The notes under the pieces are model-generated. The model searched no databases and was not told the DNA's origin. It saw nothing but the letters and a program-made list of their open reading frames with translations. Below are positions 6,019 through 39,885 of a stretch of DNA of 64,000 bases, one piece after another; within the stretch, counting starts at the first letter, position 1, and the number at the start of each line of letters is the position of its first letter. Made by a program: the position numbers and the translations under genes. Source of the DNA: Naegleria gruberi (Eukaryota); the NCBI GenBank assembly GCA_000004985.1, contig GG738860.1. One strand, written 5' to 3'.

Positions 6019-7915
6019 TCATATTTCTTCAATACTTTCTCTGGCCTTTTGCTTTTCAGCAACAGTGAGTTTTTCAAGTAATGTTCCTGCTGTGGATGGA
6101 TTCAATTTATCAGATGCATTTTCCACAGCAGTTTGAACGAGAGAAACAATCTCTTCGTCGAAATGTTTCAGTAAATGTTCATCCAAAAACCAGAAAATCC
6201 TCTCAGTTGGTACCTTGCACGATACAAAGAGTGAAATAATTTCATTGGAAAAGTGCTCCTTGTACAAGTATCCACTTTCAATGTATTTTTTCAGAAAGTT
6301 TTCACTTTCGTTTGCTATTTTAGATTGTGTATTACTCCACATTGTTCCCATTATGAAAACCATTTGAAGAAAATTAGAATGTTCACCCTCATATATTGAA
6401 TCCAAGAGAGATTGATTAGGAAGTACATTGTTGATAAGATCCAATCCTTTACAAATTTCCTTTCCCATATGAACATCTCCTGATTGGTAAATTAGCTCAA
6501 TAGCACCAATTAATACATTCAAAAATGTGACATTTTCTAAATAATAGCAATAAAATACAGTAACACATATACCATATTTTTGTAGACGGTTAGAGAATGT
6601 ATTGAATAATTGAAACCTACTTGGATCTTTTGGTGTTTGCTCACTGATTAGGAATCGATAGGCTTGTAAGATGGGATGTTTAGATAATTGCTCGACTGAA
6701 ATTCTATCTGCAGGATTAGCTGCAATACATAAACTGATTAATGTGCGAAGGGATGGTAGTTTGATTTTTTCAAGAAGAGGTTGTAAGTCAACCATATCTG
6801 ATTGGAAAAATGAGGCAAATTGCTCGTGAGAAACTCCTGAACAAACCTCTAAAAATGTTATTCCCATACTGTGGTAGGTCAGTATTTTGAAGTATTCAAT
6901 AAAACTTACGAAAAGACATCAGCTTTAGAGCTGTATGCATTTCTGAAAGCAACTTCAGGTGATATATATATTGGACTGCCACAAATTGTGTGATTTTGAG
7001 TTAGTGTGACTTCCATTACAGATTTGGCCAAACCAAAATCAGCCAATTTTACAACACCACTACTTAATAACAAATTTCCAGGTTTGATGTCTCTGTGAAT
7101 GACTCCCTTTTTTTCAAAGTATACCAACACATCAACCATTGATGAAAACCATTCCACTAATTTCTTATAGGGCAGTCTCGAGGTTTGTCCCAAATCTATA
7201 ATATCTCCTAAGCTCCCTCCATCACAATATTCCGAAACAAGTGCAATAGCATCCTTCTTAATTTTTGGTGTAAAATCTTCAAGATTATTTTTTTTAATGC
7301 ATAATTGCACAGCTCACAACTTACCAATTTTCAAATAAAATTGATCTATGTATTTCAATACATTTTGGTGATCCAATGATTTTAAAATATTAATTTCATT
7401 GTCAATTTTAGCTTGTGCATTCACCATTTGTGTAGTGTTGGTTGTAGTTGAGCTAGTAGGAGCAACCATTACTTTCATTGCATAGAATTGACAGGAAGGA
7501 GTAGGTGATGAATAGGTCGCAGTGGATTTTCTAGTTGGTTGGTTGAAAACTGTGTCGAAAATCTTGCTATTGACAGCTGACAAAGGACTGTGAGCATTTC
7601 TCACACTCGGAGACCTGTCCTCTCTAACTCTCTTCACTTTAAACACTAACAGAATAATAATATTAGCATCACATTCATCATCATTTAAAACCTACCCTGT
7701 CCAAATGCACCTAAATAATTAATAGATCAATATTTCATCAAATATTTCTTCTTACCTTCTCCAATTTTAGAGACAACTTCATAACTTCCATAAACTTTTC
7801 CAATAGCACAAAACGTATTACCACTACTCGCTGGTTTACCATTAAATAACATATCAGAAGCTTCCCTATTGAGAAATCCATCCGAATCTTCACTCATAGA
7901 GGTTCTATTGCCCAT
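6019..7915 (-). CDS. N-myristoylated Ser/Thr protein kinase with a C-terminal helical (ARM/HEAT-like) domain. It has five exons, one of them a 15-nt micro-exon: join(7915..7756, 7710..7696, 7645..7325, 7276..6910, 6868..6019) on the minus strand. Predicted length ~570 aa.
   Basis: Kinase motifs are spread across four ORFs: MGNRTS (Met-Gly-x-x-x-Ser myristoylation start), YAMKV, HRDIKPGNLLL, DFGLAK, SPEV and DVFSMG. The introns are GTAAGA/GTAGGT/GTAAGT...AG, 41-50 nt. The micro-exon GTGCATTTGGACAGG restores the glycine loop GEGAFGQVFKV. Confidence 0.8.
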
Positions 7916-29609: not shown

Positions 29610-32600
29610 ATGGATGAACAGAGGGATCATCCTGTTATTGGATTAATTCAATTTTTACCTCTCGAAGTTTGGTATGAACATATTCTTACATACTTTCCAT
29701 CGAATTTACTTTTATCCACTCGATTGGTCAACCGAAACTTTTCGAATATCATCCTTTCATATTTTATCAAACTAAAAAAGGAGTTTAATTATTCTACCTT
29801 TCGTCTTTCTAAAAAACAATTGAAGTATTCACTCAATTTTCTATCTAGATTTGAAAATTTACAAAGTTTCTGTTTTGAAAATCCCATTATGATAATTAAT
29901 GATAAAAATGATGAACAAGCAATGAATAGTTTACTTTCGGATTTGGTTTTTCTTGAACATTTACAAGAAATTGATTTAACAAGTTGTAATCATGATGGAC
30001 AATTTATTGAAAAGTTGCTGGAAAGAAATAATTCCAATAGAATGATTGAGAATTTAACAAGTTTATCTATGAATGTTGTTGAAAGTGAACATTTCACACT
30101 CATTTTGGAACATTTCATCAATTTGAAGAGTTTGAAAATAGAAAATTTTGAATATTCTTCATTTAATAATTCAATAGCTATTAAGTTGAATGATAAATTG
30201 GAAGAATTATTTATTCATTCAGGTATTACAGCCGAACATTTAAATCAAATTATGAAACAAGGAAGAAATTTGAAAAAATTATTGATTAAAATGTCAGCAA
30301 TAGAAATGGAATATCTTGATGACTTGTCAGCATTTGAAAATTTGACAAGTTTAACAATTGAAACCAACTGTGATGTTTCCTATGTTGATATTGATCAAAT
30401 TAATTCTGAACCTGAATTTCATGCCAACTATTTCAGTTCATTGAAAAATCTTAGAAATTTGACAGAATTGGAACTTCCTTGGACAATTTCAAATGAAAAT
30501 TCAGATTCAGTCAGAGAATTCTGCCATTTGTCTCAATTATCATCTCTAAAAACTCTTTATTTAACAATATTGCAGGGAAATGATAATCAAATTGAAATGG
30601 AAAAGACTTTGGAAAAAATTATTGTAACTATTAGTCATTTATATAATTTAACAGATCTTTCTCTTGATTTCTTGGAAATATTTACAGATTTTGAAGAGAT
30701 TGATCAAAATGTACTTGATAATATTCCTCAATTGACCAAACTTGAAAAATTTACCTTTGTAGGAATACCCTATCAAGATGGAACACATGTAAAGAATCTG
30801 TGTGATTATTATTGTGTTCCAACTTTGAAATATTTGTCCGTTTCCATAAAAGATGGAATAATTCCAAGTAGAAATGACTTGAAAAGTGTTGAAAGCATTG
30901 AAATGGTTATTGAGGAGGAAAATGATGTTTATTATCAATTATTTAACAAGACAAATCTTTCAAATATTACATCATTGGAAATTGGTTTGGTTAAATTGAA
31001 AGATTTGGAATTAATTTCACAAATGACAAATCTCAAAGACTTGTCAATGAAACTTGGAAACATTTCATCTTTTAAAAGTGTGAAATTTCCCAAATCATTA
31101 CAAAGTTTAGTACTTGAGGATTGTAATTTCCTGACTGGTATGGAGAATGAACACTTTTTTGACAGCTTTGGATCTTGTCCATTCTTGGAAATTATTAATT
31201 TTACAAAATGTCCACTTTTACAAGATTCATTTGTGAGAAAGCTCAGTAAATGGATTGAAAATAGCTTGGATTGTAAACAGATTATGTTTAACCAATGTGA
31301 TGGTTTGACTAATGATTCAGTTTTCTATTTCAAAGATTTGAAAAATTGCAAATACGTACATTTTTATGAATGTAGAGAATTATACTTTACAATGGAGATT
31401 TCAAATCTTTTGATGCGTAATACTTTTATAGAAGTAGAAACAGCATGTATTGTACCAAAAAGATTCTTTGATAGGCTAAACAATACCGAATCGTATATCA
31501 TTCATGAAGAAGAAATTGTAAATTCTCTAGAAAATTTCGAAAATATGATTCGAAAATTATTGGAATTAAGGCAATTTCAAAAGGCATCTCTTTACTTGCA
31601 AGCAAACATGTTTGAGAATTGTAGTGAAGAATCAGGAAATCACAAGAAATTACATCAGTTGCTTCAAGATAAGTCTACATTATTCGAAACCAAATGGTTT
31701 TTCTATTATTCCTTTTTAAAGTGTCATGTTGAAAACATCACTTTTACAACCTATGCAGATGTTGAATTTATATATAATCAAGCAATTGAATTAATTTTCA
31801 CCCAAACTAACCAAAATGAAGAATTTATTGAAGATTTAAAGATTTTACTTGTTGAACTGTTTGAGACAGGTAAAGAGTTTGAATGTATGATGAATAACAA
31901 GTCATTGGAATATATTACAACATATCTGTATGAAAAAAGAGATTTTGACAAGTTATTGAAATGTGCTTTAACAGAAGAAAGTGCATTAGAGTTGGTTAAT
32001 CAAATAACAGAGAAAGATTGCTTCCAATTGACCAGTTTGAACAACTTGTTGGAGTTAAATGAGGATTTTCTTGATAATATCATTGAAAAGAGGTCACTTT
32101 TCAAAAATTCTCCTTCATTTACTGAAAAGATGAGGGACAGAGGAATTGAAATGGATGAAAATGATTCAGAACTATTGGAAATCAATCAAAGAGTTCCTGA
32201 AAGATTCAGGAATTCTTATTTGACAGAATTGACTGTCACCATGAGTGAAAAGAACGATTTTACAGATGGGGAATCAGAAGCATTTAATGCATTTGGTTTC
32301 AGATGGAATTTAAAAGTTCAGGAAGAAGGTGATCGGTTATTGATTGATATTAACTTACTCTCCTGTATTCCCCTCAATAGGAAATTTGATTCTTATGAAA
32401 ATATTAATGGAAATGATGGAGATTCTATTGAAATTTCATTCATGTTACTGAATTATGATAATAATCCTTATTCTTACATGAGTGGAAGAAAAATATTCGA
32501 TCAATCTTCAATGCAACATACCTTTGAAATTTCCACTACTTTGATTGAGGAGTTCTCTGAAAATAATTTCAAATTTCTAATTGGATTGGGCTTGATATCG

Positions 32601-33080
32601 ATTAAGGAGAGAATAACATGTCCATTCACATCCACTCAATTTGTAATTCATAATTTGTCATTTGACATTGCTTCTGATTTGAAGGATTGCTATTTGGATG
32701 AAATTATTCTTTATTCGGCTCCAATTACGATATTTGGAACTAATTGGAATGTGAAATTCGTACAGAAATTAGAAAGTGGAATAATTGAACTTTATTTAAT
32801 GTTGGCCTCACTTGATCTATTTGATGACAAGGCAGCCATTCATGCTTGTTGTGTGGAATTTTATTTTGCCAATAAGAATCTTCATCCAGATTCCACTTTT
32901 GGTATGAAAAGAAGTTTCAATTCTCAGAATACACCTTATGGTGGTCCAATTGAGCATCAAGAATTATTAAAACCTGAAAAGAGAGTAAATCTCAATGGTG
33001 AATTGGTTGATAGATATGAAATTTCGCTCATTATGAATGTTAAGAGTATTAGTAAGAAACACTATTCGAAATTATACTAA
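29610..33080 (+). CDS. Large F-box-like / LRR protein with a C-terminal region that may contain MATH/TRAF-like domains.
   Basis: 1156-aa ORF. The N-terminus is F-box-like (LIQFLPLEVWYEHILTYFPSNLLLSTRLVNRNFSNII). There are extensive LRR-like repeats. The C-terminal MATH-like call is weak. Confidence 0.65.
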   Translation: MDEQRDHPVIGLIQFLPLEVWYEHILTYFPSNLLLSTRLVNRNFSNIILSYFIKLKKEFNYSTFRLSKKQLKYSLNFLSRFENLQSFCFENPIMIINDKNDEQAMNSLLSDLVFLEHLQEIDLTSCNHDGQFIEKLLERNNSNRMIENLTSLSMNVVESEHFTLILEHFINLKSLKIENFEYSSFNNSIAIKLNDKLEELFIHSGITAEHLNQIMKQGRNLKKLLIKMSAIEMEYLDDLSAFENLTSLTIETNCDVSYVDIDQINSEPEFHANYFSSLKNLRNLTELELPWTISNENSDSVREFCHLSQLSSLKTLYLTILQGNDNQIEMEKTLEKIIVTISHLYNLTDLSLDFLEIFTDFEEIDQNVLDNIPQLTKLEKFTFVGIPYQDGTHVKNLCDYYCVPTLKYLSVSIKDGIIPSRNDLKSVESIEMVIEEENDVYYQLFNKTNLSNITSLEIGLVKLKDLELISQMTNLKDLSMKLGNISSFKSVKFPKSLQSLVLEDCNFLTGMENEHFFDSFGSCPFLEIINFTKCPLLQDSFVRKLSKWIENSLDCKQIMFNQCDGLTNDSVFYFKDLKNCKYVHFYECRELYFTMEISNLLMRNTFIEVETACIVPKRFFDRLNNTESYIIHEEEIVNSLENFENMIRKLLELRQFQKASLYLQANMFENCSEESGNHKKLHQLLQDKSTLFETKWFFYYSFLKCHVENITFTTYADVEFIYNQAIELIFTQTNQNEEFIEDLKILLVELFETGKEFECMMNNKSLEYITTYLYEKRDFDKLLKCALTEESALELVNQITEKDCFQLTSLNNLLELNEDFLDNIIEKRSLFKNSPSFTEKMRDRGIEMDENDSELLEINQRVPERFRNSYLTELTVTMSEKNDFTDGESEAFNAFGFRWNLKVQEEGDRLLIDINLLSCIPLNRKFDSYENINGNDGDSIEISFMLLNYDNNPYSYMSGRKIFDQSSMQHTFEISTTLIEEFSENNFKFLIGLGLISIKERITCPFTSTQFVIHNLSFDIASDLKDCYLDEIILYSAPITIFGTNWNVKFVQKLESGIIELYLMLASLDLFDDKAAIHACCVEFYFANKNLHPDSTFGMKRSFNSQNTPYGGPIEHQELLKPEKRVNLNGELVDRYEISLIMNVKSISKKHYSKLY

Positions 33081-33116
33081 ACAAAACTCTTCCATTAGAA
33101 ACATATAATACTCAAT

Positions 33117-33707
33117 TTATAATAAACGACGTTTAGTTGCCAATAGTTCAGCATCATCTTCATCTCCCTTAACAATGATCAAAATCAATGCACTAACAAT
33201 TGAAGCAATTCCACACAAAATATTCAAAATACTTGCAACTAAGAGACAAATAATTGATGAAGCAACTGGTAAGTGAAGAAAATTAACACTTCTAATTCCA
33301 TAAATTATAGAAAAGGATGCATCCAAATTCATTCCAAAACAAATAGAAGCAGCAATCAATAACGCAACCTTAAAGCCAAGAATGACATTTGGTGGAATGA
33401 CACATGAAGGTTCACTTGACATGCACTTGCTCATGTCCTTTTGTAATACATTAGACATGGTGATCAAGTTTAAAATGGCCACAACCATCTGTAAGAATGA
33501 ACACAAGCTCAGTGAAATATAACTTTCGAATGGAGAAATTGGCATTTTACTTCCGGCTACATCTGTAAAGTAAAGAATGAGTGCAACCAAATTGAATACC
33601 ACCAATAGCATGGATGGAATTGCAACGAGGGAGGAGAAGAGTTTAGGAAGAAGAGGTGTGGACATTGTGTGAAATGATTCGTTTTTTTTTGCTTTAGAAT
33701 AGCTCAA
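33117..33707 (-). CDS. Hypothetical small polytopic membrane protein with four or five TM helices.
   Basis: 196-aa ORF with several 20-aa hydrophobic stretches. The probable start is the internal Met (MSTPLLPKLF...). Confidence 0.45.
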   Translation of the reverse strand: MSYSKAKKNESFHTMSTPLLPKLFSSLVAIPSMLLVVFNLVALILYFTDVAGSKMPISPFESYISLSLCSFLQMVVAILNLITMSNVLQKDMSKCMSSEPSCVIPPNVILGFKVALLIAASICFGMNLDASFSIIYGIRSVNFLHLPVASSIICLLVASILNILCGIASIVSALILIIVKGDEDDAELLATKRRLL

Positions 33708-33851
33708 AATTTATCCTTTTATTTCGTCTTATGAAATTAGAATTGAATTGGATTCTAATACGGAGTGAATTTGGCTAAGACCAACAATGTGGAAATTATC
33801 TGCTCTAATTATTTTGATATTAACTTTATTTCAGTCTTCTGACTCAACAAT

Positions 33852-36800
33852 TTAAAACCACACAAATAAGACCAATATCATTAATATTGTTGAAACTCTT
33901 AAAATGCTCAACTTGTTAGCATCTGAAGTTACTATTGAACTTTTTGGTTGAATTGTTGAGCTTGTTGGAATCATTGATATTTGTGCTGAAGGTGCTGTTG
34001 GTTGCTTACAAGTATCAAGTGGTGGCAGTGAAGGAATGGCAACAGTAGGAATAGAAAACGATGTCTGTACAGCTGTGAAAGTATTTACAAAAAATGTGTA
34101 AGGATCCTGATCATTTGGTATTGTAAATGGGAAAACAACTTGTAAAACTGGAGATGATGGAACAAATGTGGAATTGTAGGTAATATTCACATTAAGGGGT
34201 GTCCAAATGACAGTAACAGAATTGGCTGATTGAACCCATGTTGAACTTTGCTCTGAAAAGAATGCAGTACCAAATCCATTCATTGATGTACCATTGTACA
34301 GACCCTTACTATGTAACCAATGACCTGGTACACTTGGAGATGTAATTAGACTTTGAGTTTTTGCAGAATTCCATGAAGAATCTCCAATATGTGCCTCTCC
34401 ATTAGTTGTAATACTTTGAACAAGAATACTCTGACCGTCAGTTCTCAAATTTTGAATACTCAATATTTTAACTACCACGAGTGGTATTCCAGGAGCGTAG
34501 GAAACTACATTCACTTGTAACATGACAACGAGACCACGTGAGGAAATTCTCTGTTGAATGAGTACTGCGGCACTTGTTTCTGATATGCTGGCCTTTAATA
34601 CAGAGCTAGTGGTATCAGGAGCATTCCATGAGGTGCTACTTTCACTGGATAGCATTGTACCTGTTGTTATTCTCAAAGTAGCAAGTCTTGAACCTTTCCA
34701 CGACAGTCTCACAATGGAGCCATCAATTTTAACAGAACCAAAGTCATAAGCAAGCCCATCAGGAATCGATCCAGCTAAATTTTGAGCAGTGACATTACCA
34801 GTTGGTGATGAAAGTGGTTGAGTTTGATATATTGTGCTATTCAAACCTGCACTATGACGAGCACAAACATTGAAATTCATTGAAATGGCTGCTTGAACCA
34901 TGAGTGGGTAAGGATCATCATTCACATTCAGTAAACCATAATTGGAATTCTCAGGGAAAGTGGTACTAATACCAAGAGCTGGCTCATCAACATACATGAA
35001 ATAGGAATTACCAACAATTAATGGATGAGATTGTAAAAAAGTATTAAAGTAGGAATAACATTTGGCACGTTGAGCTTGATTATCAACTCTCATTCCAGCT
35101 CCATGAGTGGATGGTAAGCCAGCATCCAGAGCAGGGAACGACCACTCTGTAATGATTAGAGGACGATTATAATTTCCTACCCATTGTTGTGGAGTTTGTT
35201 GAACTTGTTTTGGAATTCCCAAATTGACCTCAATAGAAGGATACCAATTGTATGTAATGACATCACAATATTTGGCTGCAATATCTACAATGTCAGGCGC
35301 TTGTCCTGGAAAACGATTACACAAATAGACATGATTTGGATCAACTTTTTTGAGTGCTTGTGAAACTGTACTGAAATAAATCTCTGCAACATTTCTAACA
35401 AATTGACGTGAGACACTGATGGCCTTCTCACTCATTGGTATGGCAGGAGAGGTATTGTTAACAAGTGTTGCGAATGAATTAATTCCTGAAATACCCCATC
35501 CATTCATAAACTCTGTTTCCAAATTGACCAAACCAAAAGTATCAATAATGAGATTTGCCCAAGCAATCTTGGCAGTGTGATTTGACTCCTTAAGCCAAGC
35601 CTGATTAAACAAACAATAGTCCTTACTGGAACAACCACTATCTCCCCACCATTGAATTTCATTATCTACAAAGTGTCCAATAACCCACGGATCATCTCTA
35701 TATTGTAAATAATCTGAAAAGGTAAAATAGAGAAAATCAGTCCATTGTGGATGGAAAACATTTGGAAATCCAGTCCAAGTGGTCTTTGGTGTAATGTCAC
35801 TAATCTTGCCTGAAAATTCATTGGTTGTGTGAGTGATTGTGTGAGCTAGTCCCTTATATCTCAAATAGGTTGACACATCAGTTCCAAGAGTATTGAATCC
35901 CCATGATAGTAATCTCTGAGCTTGTGCATTGGCCCAATTAGATTCATTTCCATATTTAATAGAAACATTGCAAAACCTCCCAAAGCTTCAGTAGCAAATT
36001 CATAATAATTAACATGGTCAACTGCAACAAAATAGAATGGATTACCAACAGGATCAATGAACCACCACTTCCCTGTTGTAATATCTTGCTCGACACGGAA
36101 AAATCCAGTGGCTTTACGTGGACACATTGAAGTACAACTCAAAGATGGATTCCATGCAGGAAATTGTCGAGTAATTGTCATATTCACAGGTACTGTCCAC
36201 GATGAGGTAACATTACTATAGACAACATTAAGAAAACCAGTGTGAAAAGCACCTCTTCCTGTAAGTACTGCTTGTGGATTTGTGATACACCAACCAAGTG
36301 AGCTAACTACACTTCCATTGGAGGCAAAAGCCCATTTTGCTTGAACTTTAGCAATACAACTGATATTGTTGCTAGGATGATATCCACCAATGGACATGGA
36401 AATAGTTGCAGTATAATCTACACCATATTGCCAATTATAGGAACTTCCACTTGAAGGAAGTGAAATTGCATCCTGAGATGAAGAAAGCCAAACGCCATTC
36501 TTCATTTCACCCAACTCTACAAAGTGACTTGAGCCAGATTGTAATGGAGATTCAACAAGATGAGTAGCCCAATAATTACTCGAATCCTTATAAATAGCAA
36601 CACCTCCAGTCAACCACACAGTATTAGTAACTTGTGAAATACGGGACAATATTCTAACATTGGTAGAGAAGGTTGTATCATTGGCCAAACTAGCTGCCAC
36701 ATGCTGAACAGTGAGAGAACCATAACCATTATCAATCCAGAATTTACCCTCTGAAATGAATGAACCATACGAAGAAGCCAACCAATTCGGAGCTCCAAAA

Positions 36801-36937
36801 GCACCATTAATATAAGCAGCAGATGAGAAATTGTCGGTTACTGTTGTGGCTGTTATTGTTGTTGTTGTCGTTGTGGTGTGGATTGTGAAAATAAGCAACA
36901 GCAACAGCATCAACAATTGTCCGCAAAGTTTGTTCAT
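33852..36937 (-). CDS. Secreted clan GH-A (TIM-barrel) glycoside hydrolase. It has an N-terminal beta-sandwich domain, a Thr-rich linker and a hydrophobic C-terminal tail. The reading frame is broken near 35930-35990 by a frameshift or by an intron with a non-canonical donor.
   Basis: Two overlapping minus-strand ORFs (36988..35861 and 35876..33852) read as one protein. Signal peptide MNKLCGQLLMLLLLLIFTIHT, then a poly-T linker. Catalytic-type motifs: FVDNEIQWWG (acid/base NE) and LIITEWSF (nucleophile TE). The segment QRLLSWGFNTLG lies in the -1 frame relative to the upstream FYFVAVDHVNYYEF. Confidence 0.6.
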
Positions 36938-37106
36938 TTTTTTTAATGATTCGAACTCATCTTTGAAAACATTGTAATCGGCAATCATCTTTCATTTTCA
37001 ATGTGAGATCTTGTCTTGGATTTCATTCTTCTTAATTTTTTACATTTTACATTTTTTTTACATTTTTATGTTTTTTGAAAAAGAGTTTTTTTAAATTACA
37101 AAAAAA

Positions 37107-38306
37107 ATGCAATACGAAGATGACGATCCCATGAGTGAAGCCTTATCACTCAATGATCCTTCTTCCGAAGTAGAGTATGATTTGGGATCGATGCCTTTGG
37201 AAGAATTAATTGAACTATATGAAAAGATGGAGAATGATCGGATTGACTTGGAAAAATTAAATGAAATTGTTTATGAAATTTGTGATGTGTACATGGTAGA
37301 AAATAATGAAGAGAAAGTCTTTGAATGGAAACTCAAGGCAGCAGAGAAGGGAATTGTAGATGCTCAAGCAAGTGTTGCAGAAATGTATGATGAAGGGCGT
37401 GGAGTTTCGGCCAATTATGAAAAGGCATTGTATTGGTTGATTAAAGCAGCTGAGGGAGGTGATTTGGAATCACAAATACTTCTTGGTTGGTATTATGAAA
37501 AAGGAAAAGGAATGGATCAACCAAATAATGAAATGTCATTTAAATGGTATAAGCAAGCTGCTGATTTTGGGGTTGTTGATGCCATTCATAGATGTGGTTA
37601 CTCACTATTGAAGATTGGAGATGCTCAAGGTGCCATGTCATGGTTTATAAAGGGATTGGAGTGTAGGGATGGACCATCAATGGTTGAGCTTGCAGAAATG
37701 TATAGAAGTGGTGAAGGAGTAGTTAAAGATATGAAGAAGTCGTTCGAATATTACGAAATGGCAGCCAAAGTTGAGTGTAGACGAGGTCTTATGGGTGTTG
37801 GAACGGCCTATCAATTTGGATTTGGTGTTGGAGTGAATTTTGAAAAGGCAAGGCATTATTTTGAATTGGGTGCTTTACAGAACTGCCCCGGCTCAATGAA
37901 TAATCTTGCGGATATGTATTGGAAAGGCGAGGGAGTCGAACGAAATTTCCAAAAAGCCCTTGAATGGGTTAAAAAATCTATTGAACTCGGTAGTTATGAT
38001 GGAATTGCAACATATGGAGAAATGATTTTGGCTGGTGATGGTGTAGAACAAGATTACAATAAGGCATTTGAAAATTTCAAAATTGCATCAGAAAACAACT
38101 GTTCCTTTGCACATGCCCTTCTTGGAAGAATGTATGAAAATGGTTGGGGATGTGAAAAGGATATTTCCAAAGCTTTTCTATTATATCTGAAAGGAGCAAA
38201 AGAATATGATGAGGCAGCAGTCGAGAGATTGGAATCAACATTTAAGACTTCCTTGTATAAAAAGTCATTTCATCTTTGTGATGTGGTGATTACAACTGAA
38301 CCATAA
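37107..38306 (+). CDS. Sel1-like repeat (SLR) protein.
   Basis: 399-aa ORF with ~9 tandem 36-aa Sel1-type repeats, for example AEMYDEGRGVSANYEKALYWLIKAAEGGDLESQILLGWYYEKGKG. Confidence 0.85.
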   Translation: MQYEDDDPMSEALSLNDPSSEVEYDLGSMPLEELIELYEKMENDRIDLEKLNEIVYEICDVYMVENNEEKVFEWKLKAAEKGIVDAQASVAEMYDEGRGVSANYEKALYWLIKAAEGGDLESQILLGWYYEKGKGMDQPNNEMSFKWYKQAADFGVVDAIHRCGYSLLKIGDAQGAMSWFIKGLECRDGPSMVELAEMYRSGEGVVKDMKKSFEYYEMAAKVECRRGLMGVGTAYQFGFGVGVNFEKARHYFELGALQNCPGSMNNLADMYWKGEGVERNFQKALEWVKKSIELGSYDGIATYGEMILAGDGVEQDYNKAFENFKIASENNCSFAHALLGRMYENGWGCEKDISKAFLLYLKGAKEYDEAAVERLESTFKTSLYKKSFHLCDVVITTEP

Positions 38307-38553
38307 TTAAATTCTAAATTTAATTTCAATATTAGTATGAAATTATTGGCCTTATTTAAGGTTGGTTGAGCTAACATCTGAAAAGTAGAGAACAAGAGCC
38401 ACCCAATTGAAAACCAAAAGCAAAGCTTCAGATGGGAATGTAACGATCTTAAATATTAATTTTAAATAGTGTGAGTGTCATCATTTAGATGACCAAGTTA
38501 GTTTCGATTTATTAAGAATTTTTTCCAATCCTTAATAGAGATGATGTACAAAA

Positions 38554-39885
38554 TTACTGTTGGAGTTTTTCTAACAATTCAGCAGTTGTTTGTTGTGGTT
38601 GAGGTGTCGTGGTATTGGAAGTGAGTGGCTCAAAAGAAATTCTCACAATTCCATATTTCATTAAGGTATCCTCTCCCATCATGTCAATTGAGGTTGATGA
38701 TGAGGAAGAAGAGAAAGTACTCGAAACTCCATGAGTTGTCCTATTGGTTTTCAATTCACAAGATTCATTTTTCTTTTGATTGACAGGTGGTTTGGCTGAA
38801 GATGGAGTTCTTTTAAATGATTTCATTGAACACAATTCATTATTAGCTAAAGATGAGAGTGATTTGTTTGAATTTTGATTGTTGGACTGAGTTTGATCCA
38901 ATACATCATTTGAATAATCCTCAAAGAAGGCATCAAATGATGAAGAGCTTTGATGCATTGAATTATTTGGTTCAAGCATTTTCTTTTCTCCTAATTCACT
39001 TGTGCTCGTTTCAGATTTGAGTTCTTCCTTCATTGATGTTTGTTTTGGTGAATTATTTGCAGTAACTCTTGGTGAAGATTGAGAGGTTGGTGAAATAGTT
39101 TTAGGTTCTGAAAGCAACATGTTGAGTGTTCTCGATGATGGTATTCTCAAATTAAATTCAGAATAGTCAATATCCTCTGATTGACTTGTTGAGCTAGTAC
39201 CACTTGGTTGAGTAGTAGGCAAAGCTCCTGTTGTTGATGACGTTCTTTTACAATCCAAATCACCCGAAGATCTTCTCTTCTTTGAGAAGAAATCAAATCG
39301 TGGAGAGGTTGATGACTTTTTCTTTTCCTCCTTATTTTCTTTCAGAGCCAATTCATCCAAACAACTAGAAACCGAAGAACTTCTCTTATATTTGGAAAAT
39401 AACTTTCTCGATGTTCTTTTCGATGTGTTATTATTATTATTATTATTTTGATCTTGATGATGATTTGTATGATTACTATTTGTTGAATTGGCATCATCCA
39501 TAGAACTAGTTGATTTTCTATTATTTCCATCTCCGTCTAATGATATTCTGCTAGCAGAATTATTTCCTTGTTGTTGTTGTGGTTGTTGTTTTCTTGATAT
39601 ATTTGCTCTGATTTTCTCAGTATCCCATACAAAAAAGTGTTCTTCTTCTTCGACAATCATTGTGGCATCTTCTATGATCATCATATCATCCTCTCCACCA
39701 CTTGAATAGTGTAGTGAAGAGGAGGAAGAGTTACGTCTTCCTCGTGGTGTATTAGAACTGGAGTGGCATCTCCTCTGTTGATGCTTTTGATTTGTTTTTG
39801 TAATAGTTGTTGTATGATTCTCTTCATGATAATGTCGTGGCGAGAGTTTCTTCTTGATGGCACCAAAGAGTTTGACAATTTGCAT
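38554..39885 (-). CDS. Low-complexity S/N/Q/T-rich protein. The N-terminus probably extends into the 39973-40022 gap.
   Basis: 443-aa ORF. The frame stays open upstream of the first Met (..QQQQQSSSSPSPPPNSNNKKNK-MQIV..) all the way to the N-run. Confidence 0.45.
   Translation of the reverse strand: MQIVKLFGAIKKKLSPRHYHEENHTTTITKTNQKHQQRRCHSSSNTPRGRRNSSSSSLHYSSGGEDDMMIIEDATMIVEEEEHFFVWDTEKIRANISRKQQPQQQQGNNSASRISLDGDGNNRKSTSSMDDANSTNSNHTNHHQDQNNNNNNNTSKRTSRKLFSKYKRSSSVSSCLDELALKENKEEKKKSSTSPRFDFFSKKRRSSGDLDCKRTSSTTGALPTTQPSGTSSTSQSEDIDYSEFNLRIPSSRTLNMLLSEPKTISPTSQSSPRVTANNSPKQTSMKEELKSETSTSELGEKKMLEPNNSMHQSSSSFDAFFEDYSNDVLDQTQSNNQNSNKSLSSLANNELCSMKSFKRTPSSAKPPVNQKKNESCELKTNRTTHGVSSTFSSSSSSTSIDMMGEDTLMKYGIVRISFEPLTSNTTTPQPQQTTAELLEKLQQ

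Follow-up and report, generated by a model that had tools for sequence, protein, structure and literature searches.

The closest structurally solved relatives of the gene product considered here, both by sequence and by fold, are the beta-agarases of glycoside hydrolase family 50 (GH50), namely the exo-beta-agarase Aga50D of Saccharophagus degradans (PDB 4bq2-4bq5), AgWH50C (5z6p), PfGH50B (6xj9) and BpGH50 (5t3b). The gene itself belongs to Naegleria gruberi and occupies positions 33852 to 36937, minus strand, of a 64,000-nucleotide (nt) stretch of contig GG738860.1 (assembly GCA_000004985.1), which we refer to as the window; it is a GH50-like glycosidase gene whose reading frame is broken once. 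Its product has in common with the GH50 agarases a (beta/alpha)8 barrel and equivalently placed catalytic residues (an acid/base within an Asn-Glu motif and a Glu as nucleophile), as well as a conserved ..KYG..W...R(L/M)L.WGF.. segment ahead of a barrel strand. However, it is only 17-22% identical to these enzymes in structural alignments, it lacks the insert of ~90 residues found between linker and KYG motif in the agarases, and it brings an N-terminal beta-sandwich of its own and a further beta domain at the C-terminus. The GH2 beta-glucuronidases/galactosidases and GH42 beta-galactosidases, also of clan GH-A, likewise share the barrel fold and catalytic motif, but the matches to them are much weaker (Foldseek 1e-14 versus 4e-30 for GH50) and cover part of the barrel only. 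Uncharacterised bacterial proteins of ~930-1150 amino acids (aa) from metagenome-assembled genomes (e.g. P0002 and P0005) have the full three-domain architecture in common with the Naegleria protein and are colinear with it, although they lack its poly-Thr linker, Ser/Thr/Pro stalk and hydrophobic C-terminal tail. Secreted GH50 "agarase" genes with signal peptides have also been described from the phagotrophic cryptomonad Goniomonas avonlea, where they were read as prey-digestion enzymes (PMC6260743). This is likewise a case of a heterotrophic protist with a signal-peptide-bearing protein that was assigned to GH50.

In the present study we compare the N. gruberi gene with an intact allele from a sister strain and with bacterial homologues, and we use structure prediction to examine the region in which the frame is broken. 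Taken together, these comparisons make it likely that the locus is a single N. gruberi glycosidase gene of bacterial origin, that its frame is broken by 13 missing nucleotides and that the intron placed there by the public gene model is spurious.

The broken frame and an intact sister allele

The glycosidase gene is read from 36937 to 33852 and consists of two long open reading frames (ORFs) that lie in different frames and together amount to ~1,030 residues. The N-terminal frame starts with an ATG at 36937 and is terminated at 35861-35863, while the C-terminal one, open from 35987 onward, has its stop codon at 33852-33854. These frames overlap by 124 nt, and it takes a -1/+2 shift to get from the N-terminal into the C-terminal one. 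Both halves are matched by the same bacterial proteins in a protein search, with E values down to 1.7e-143, which places the observation of a broken gene far beyond chance. A preliminary description of this DNA had reported the broken frame with its -1 shift, the peptides FYFVAVDHVNYYEFATEALG, QRLLSWGFNTLG, FVDNEIQWWG and LIITEWSF, and a GTTTTG...CACAAG segment as candidate intron. All of these are present in the window, where the segment occupies 35921-35976 and is 56 nt long, a length of the form 3n+2.

To obtain a query for searches of protein collections and of PDB sequences, the frame was provisionally repaired by the addition of one base. The best match of the resulting protein is XP_002678906.1 (EFC46162.1; UniProt D2VAY6), a 1009-aa "agarase" of N. 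gruberi NEG-M encoded on a 537-kb scaffold, which is identical to the window translation except for a spliced-out stretch. The junction of this protein reads ...EFATEALG followed directly by AQRLLSWGFNTLG..., which shows that the intron used by the public model to cross the break is precisely the 56-nt segment 35921-35976. The gene is already deposited in public databases, but it is mis-modelled there, and its spliced product is recorded from the reference scaffold only.

An allele with an unbroken frame was located by exact-sequence look-up of the neighboring Sel1-repeat protein. The contig that carries it, assembled from run ERR1078381 (ENA ERZ929261, project PRJEB11402), is 9.1 kb in length, is 97.5-98.7% identical to positions 30076-39232 of the window and has the same genes in the same order. 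The sample is labelled "metagenome", and the Naegleria strain within it is 97.6% identical to the N. gruberi reference, with a divergence of ~2-2.5%. On this contig the glycosidase is a single unbroken ORF of 1040 aa when counted from an upstream ATG, or of 1023 aa when counted from MNKLCG, and it reads ...EFATEALGGFAEYHYNVSIKYGNESNWANAQAQRLLSWGFNTLG... across the site of the break. When compared base by base, the window and the intact gene differ by 45 substitutions (28 synonymous and 17 non-synonymous), by two in-frame indels of 6 nt (in a Leu run) and 21 nt (in the poly-Thr tract), and by a 13-nt gap that is the sole frame-breaking difference between the two alleles. The gap is located at 35968-35971 on the minus strand, where the window is without GAATATCACTACA that is present in the intact allele, and its placement is ambiguous by 2 nt as there is CA microhomology. 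The preliminary description had thus come to within a few bases of the lesion itself, whereas both of the repairs that it offered, the 56-nt intron and a 1-nt error, appear to be wrong. Our own rough estimate of dN/dS between the two alleles is ~0.2, and from the excess of synonymous changes we infer that the gene has been under purifying selection over most of the two-strain divergence.

Bacterial homologues establish which of the two forms is ancestral. We constructed an alignment of 16 sequences (the intact allele and 15 bacterial homologues) and then one of 76 sequences (with 75 bacterial homologues). In both cases the bacterial proteins align to the intact allele gap-free through the junction, where the alignment consensus is HWCEKLGYAPYxRNxxxKYGSExxWAxxTxxRLxxWGFNTL. 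The 56-nt segment encodes ..NVSIKYGNESNWANAQ.., a run of residues that is colinear with the 75 bacterial homologues and that includes W347 (intact-allele numbering), which is invariant. Also encoded within the segment are Y333, E344 and A348, for all of which conservation in the 16-sequence alignment is 90% or more, as it still is for Y333 in the 76-sequence alignment. Gap-free colinearity with the homologues, together with the presence of conserved residues inside the supposed intron, therefore indicates that the long form is ancestral and that the window carries a deletion.

We modelled the intact allele with AlphaFold on the basis of the 76-sequence alignment, and the resulting model has a predicted local distance difference test score (pLDDT) of 83 and a predicted template modelling score of 0.82. 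It lays the protein out as a beta-sandwich (residues 39-255), a (beta/alpha)8 barrel (~285-710) and an all-beta domain (742-951), followed by a disordered Ser/Thr/Pro stretch and a hydrophobic C-terminal helix. The 23 residues that are absent from the public model (329-351) correspond in this prediction to a helix at 332-341 and the first half of a helix at 344-357, a block with pLDDT values of 91-98 that stands immediately before the GFNTLG strand of the barrel. A protein made according to the 1009-aa public model would probably misfold.

Explanations for the frame break

The possibility that 35921-35976 is really spliced was considered first in the preliminary description and is also what the public model assumes. 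If so, the segment would be a newborn intron that arose by "intronisation": the 13-nt deletion would have been followed by an A>T change that created a GT, with removal of the segment then rescuing the frame and yielding the 1009-aa enzyme. The segment does have GT...AG ends, its 3n+2 length restores the frame exactly and it contains a CTAAT ~20 nt before the acceptor. In length and in its AAG acceptor the segment is also within the range of the validated introns of this window, which are found in a protein kinase gene on the minus strand that has two very short introns, one of 41 nt at 6869-6909 and one of 48 nt at 7277-7324. These begin and end with GTAAGT...CAG and GTAAGT...AAG, respectively, and once they are removed the Pkinase match is unbroken across both junctions. 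Five further plausible introns in the window start with GTAAGT, GTAAGA or GTATGT. Against this local GTAAGT/GTATGT pattern, the GTTTTG donor of the 56-nt segment agrees only at its GT, in keeping with the weakness that the preliminary description had already seen in it. This donor comparison is based on a small sample of two validated and five plausible introns that were hand-picked after a blind GT-AG screen proved too noisy, and we found no usable literature on a Naegleria agarase or on a Naegleria splice-site consensus. The segment, moreover, does not interrupt coding sequence but is itself coding, as it is in frame with the downstream exon and is read through in the sister allele. Even the GT is absent from the intact allele, which has GGATTT at this position; the window differs from it by a synonymous A>T change at 35975 (minus strand; GGT in the window versus GGA in the intact allele), and this single-nucleotide difference is what makes the apparent donor. 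Splicing would in addition remove the invariant W347 along with a helix and a half, predicted with high confidence, where the barrel begins. Because the donor is atypical and the segment is both coding and conserved, we judge the 56-nt intron of the public model to be a gene-prediction artefact that restores the frame, and genuine splicing of this segment to be very unlikely.

The other repair that had been put forward, an error of one base in the ggaggttttgc homopolymer, has in its favor that one added base opens a continuous frame of 1028 aa and that the protein so repaired matches GH50 structures. However, the intact allele differs by 13 nt rather than by one, and the repaired protein falls four residues short of the sister allele and of all aligned homologues in this region, and is without the conserved Y333. 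With a 13-nt difference to the intact allele we reject a single-base error, which is highly improbable. Programmed -1 ribosomal frameshifting within the 124-nt overlap, for example at T TTG GGA, would supply a shift of the needed size, and a heptamer of the form X XXY YYZ is indeed present at 35978-35984. Canonical slippery sites do not have GGG as their YYY, though, and recoding is uncalled for when the sister allele and all homologues use one frame; on account of this single-frame coding it is also rejected and is the least probable of the explanations that we weighed.

The 13 nt may be missing from the organism or only from its assembly, the reference copy being either an allele that was frameshifted recently or one affected by a gap in the assembly. 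If the bases are present in NEG-M and were dropped through an artefact of sequencing or assembly, this strain would have an intact and functional gene, which would sit well with a single frame-breaking lesion and a substitution pattern that fits purifying selection. Several further observations count against our preferred interpretation. Exact-product look-ups of both window ORFs returned no independent assembly or transcript of the reference strain that would confirm the gap, so that it is known from the reference assembly alone, with true absence, absence from one haplotype and loss during assembly all being compatible with what is seen. The intact allele, for its part, derives from the sample that is labelled as a metagenome, and the GT-AG ends, 56-nt length and AAG acceptor of the disputed segment are all compatible with real Naegleria introns. 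On the other hand, a clean 13-nt loss with 2-nt microhomology resembles a replication-slippage or end-joining deletion and is unlike a base-calling error, as such errors usually hit single bases in homopolymers. In view of the clean loss, the microhomology on its flanks and the lack of any other lesion in a gene that is otherwise constrained, we favor a genuine recent deletion in NEG-M and regard it as fairly likely, with an assembly error being unlikely. NEG-M is an axenically grown laboratory strain, and relaxed selection on a secreted glycosidase under axenic growth is, as speculation, a plausible background for such a deletion.

According to our preferred explanation, an ancestor of the N. 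gruberi lineage would have acquired the glycosidase gene from bacteria, after which the gene adapted to its host and the amoebal copy gained a eukaryotic linker and anchor. Its product would be a secreted, probably surface-tethered, retaining clan GH-A glycosidase. The 13 nt would then have been lost just ahead of the first helices of the catalytic barrel, such that translation of the gene as sequenced would stop after the N-terminal beta-sandwich and 39 out-of-frame residues, and therefore no catalytic domain would be made. The reference copy is thus a probable null allele that is concealed behind a false intron.

Probable bacterial origin and enzyme family

Following the N. gruberi entry itself, the protein search listed 119 matches, many of them without a source name, and every source name that is given is bacterial. 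Identity is 33-45% among the better-scoring of the listed matches and falls to 28% at the bottom of the list. The sources named among the listed matches are Hydrogenedentes, Planctomycetes/Planctomycetota, Armatimonadetes/Armatimonadota, Kiritimatiellaeota/Kiritimatiellota and Lentisphaeria/Lentisphaerota. No other eukaryote is present among the best 120 matches, and a scan of Joint Genome Institute (JGI) metagenome contigs gave no close relative. In a rough neighbor-joining tree without support values, the Naegleria protein forms a long branch that is nested among bacterial sequences. The gene is nevertheless integrated in a eukaryotic genome, as it is flanked by eukaryotic-type genes on the 537-kb scaffold and has the same neighbors in an independent assembly, and its GC content at third codon positions (25-28%) is like that of neighboring genes (25-29%). 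Bacterial contamination is ruled out by these neighbors, by the synteny, by the host-like third-position composition and by the amoebal linker, stalk and tail. The bacterial origin that the preliminary description had raised as a possibility is in agreement with the match list, the tree, the host-like codon usage and the synteny. Judged on sequence evidence of this kind, the bacterial match list along with amoebal codon usage and neighbors supports an old acquisition from bacteria.

The enzyme family of the product was settled by comparison with PDB sequences and folds rather than by domain models. Scans of the 1-nt-repaired protein against Pfam and NCBIfam gave marginal GH2-type matches only, with no GH50 model turning up in either collection; the Pfam Glyco_hydro_2_C match is weak (E 7.8e-5), and some of the homologues match PF02449. 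A phmmer search of PDB sequences, in contrast, gave significant similarity over ~360 residues to the catalytic domains of GH50 enzymes, specifically 5z6p (E 1.7e-33), Aga50D 4bq2 (E 1.8e-31) and 6xj9 (E 3.6e-28). A Foldseek search with the AlphaFold model likewise returned GH50 structures at all of ranks 1-17 (E 4e-30 to 7e-21), with GH2 glucuronidases being next at ~1e-14. Both of the expected catalytic glutamates can be placed. The acid/base residue is encoded by a GAA codon at 35658-35660 (minus strand) in FVDNEIQWWG, where FVDNE aligns with FIDNE of Aga50D and the Glu with the position at which the Aga50D mutant of PDB 4bq4 has Gln. The nucleophile is encoded by a GAG codon at 35145-35147 (minus strand) in LIITEWSF, which aligns with IIGEFH of the GH50 agarases (ITEW with IGEF). 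E439 and E610 are invariant in the 76-sequence alignment. The call of a secreted-type clan GH-A glycoside hydrolase made in the preliminary description is therefore sustained, with GH50 beta-agarases as its best relatives by sequence and by fold, and we file the protein as a putative GH50-like glycoside hydrolase of clan GH-A.

Similarity to agarases does not necessarily extend to their substrate. To our knowledge, all characterised GH50 enzymes are agarases, and this counts against the other substrate that we propose below. The neighborhoods of two bacterial homologue genes offered no substrate clue. However, agarase activity is doubtful given the 17-22% identity, the missing insert of ~90 residues, the lack of agar-utilisation genes in those same two neighborhoods and the habitats of the homologues, since Hydrogenedentes and Armatimonadetes, the phyla of many of the named homologues, are largely non-marine. 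We consider agarose to be an unlikely substrate. Our best guess is that the protein would be a retaining beta-glycosidase that acts on a beta-linked galactan-like polysaccharide, or on a bacterial or biofilm polysaccharide, at the amoeba surface or in the phagosome.

Domain layout, neighboring genes and implications

The features of the gene are all on the minus strand and are given here in order from the N-terminus. The protein begins with the signal-peptide-like sequence MNKLCGQLLMLLLLLIFTIH (36878-36937), which is followed by a poly-Thr linker (36836-36877), both of which had been noted earlier and are readily visible in the sequence. An in-frame ATG at 36988 is also open and would add 17 residues (MIADYNVFKDEFESLKK; 36938-36988) that are identical in the sister strain. 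The choice of start differs between annotations, with a prokaryotic gene caller selecting the upstream ATG on the sister contig and the public model using the downstream ATG, which is preceded by an A-run. The linker is where the in-frame 21-nt length difference between strains is located, while the 6-nt indel in the Leu run is a separate event at ~36909. Length variation in this region (36836-36915) involves both the Leu run of the signal peptide and the poly-Thr linker, and the 21-nt indel, which is in an ACAAC-type repeat, looks microsatellite-like.

Beyond the linker is an N-terminal all-beta domain of the beta-sandwich type (36185-36835), then the catalytic (beta/alpha)8 barrel from RKATGFFRVE to NVCARHSAG (34845-36118) and a C-terminal all-beta domain (34065-34754). 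The two beta domains are common to the bacterial homologues, as judged from the alignments and the AlphaFold model, and the barrel is delimited by the PDB search, the fold search and the same model. The beta-sandwich and triosephosphate isomerase (TIM) barrel that had been proposed from sequence motifs thus have predicted counterparts in the model. The C-terminus is formed by a Ser/Thr/Pro-rich stalk and a hydrophobic tail (ILRVSTILMILVLFVWF; 33855-34061) that are Naegleria-specific in the alignments, the stalk being a low-confidence stretch in the AlphaFold model. This tail looks like a glycosylphosphatidylinositol-attachment signal or a membrane/tail anchor, and would have been added after transfer. 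Several of the non-synonymous differences between strains cluster in this same stalk and tail region.

Immediately upstream of the glycosidase gene, and divergently transcribed from it, is a gene for a 399-aa Sel1-repeat protein (37107-38306, plus strand). The protein shows 100% identity to its counterpart from the sister strain, even though the DNA around the gene differs by 2-3%. The other flank has a 1156-aa leucine-rich-repeat-like ORF (29610-33080, plus strand) and a small hydrophobic ORF (33117-33707, minus strand) that is 196 aa long in the window and is called as 182 aa on the sister contig. The order of both of these flanking ORFs is conserved on that contig.

This analysis is of value chiefly as a correction, since in the public "agarase" model a frameshift appears to be masked by an intron that does not exist, and only a remote likeness to GH50 enzymes stands behind the name "agarase". 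Although not in itself surprising, the case helps to mend an annotation and offers a neat example of horizontal transfer. It illustrates how, in protists with few introns, gene predictors can convert a frameshift into an intron, so that too many introns are counted and truncated proteins pass into databases. It also adds one well-supported transfer, from bacteria to an amoeba, of a large three-domain glycosidase that belongs to a bacterial family widespread in several poorly characterised phyla, including Hydrogenedentes, Armatimonadetes, Planctomycetes and others. Should intronisation after all prove to be true, then a newborn intron would have been caught in the act of rescuing a frameshift in a horizontally acquired gene. 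If instead the deletion is true, as we favor, then NEG-M would carry a null allele of an enzyme that is kept under selection in its wild relatives.

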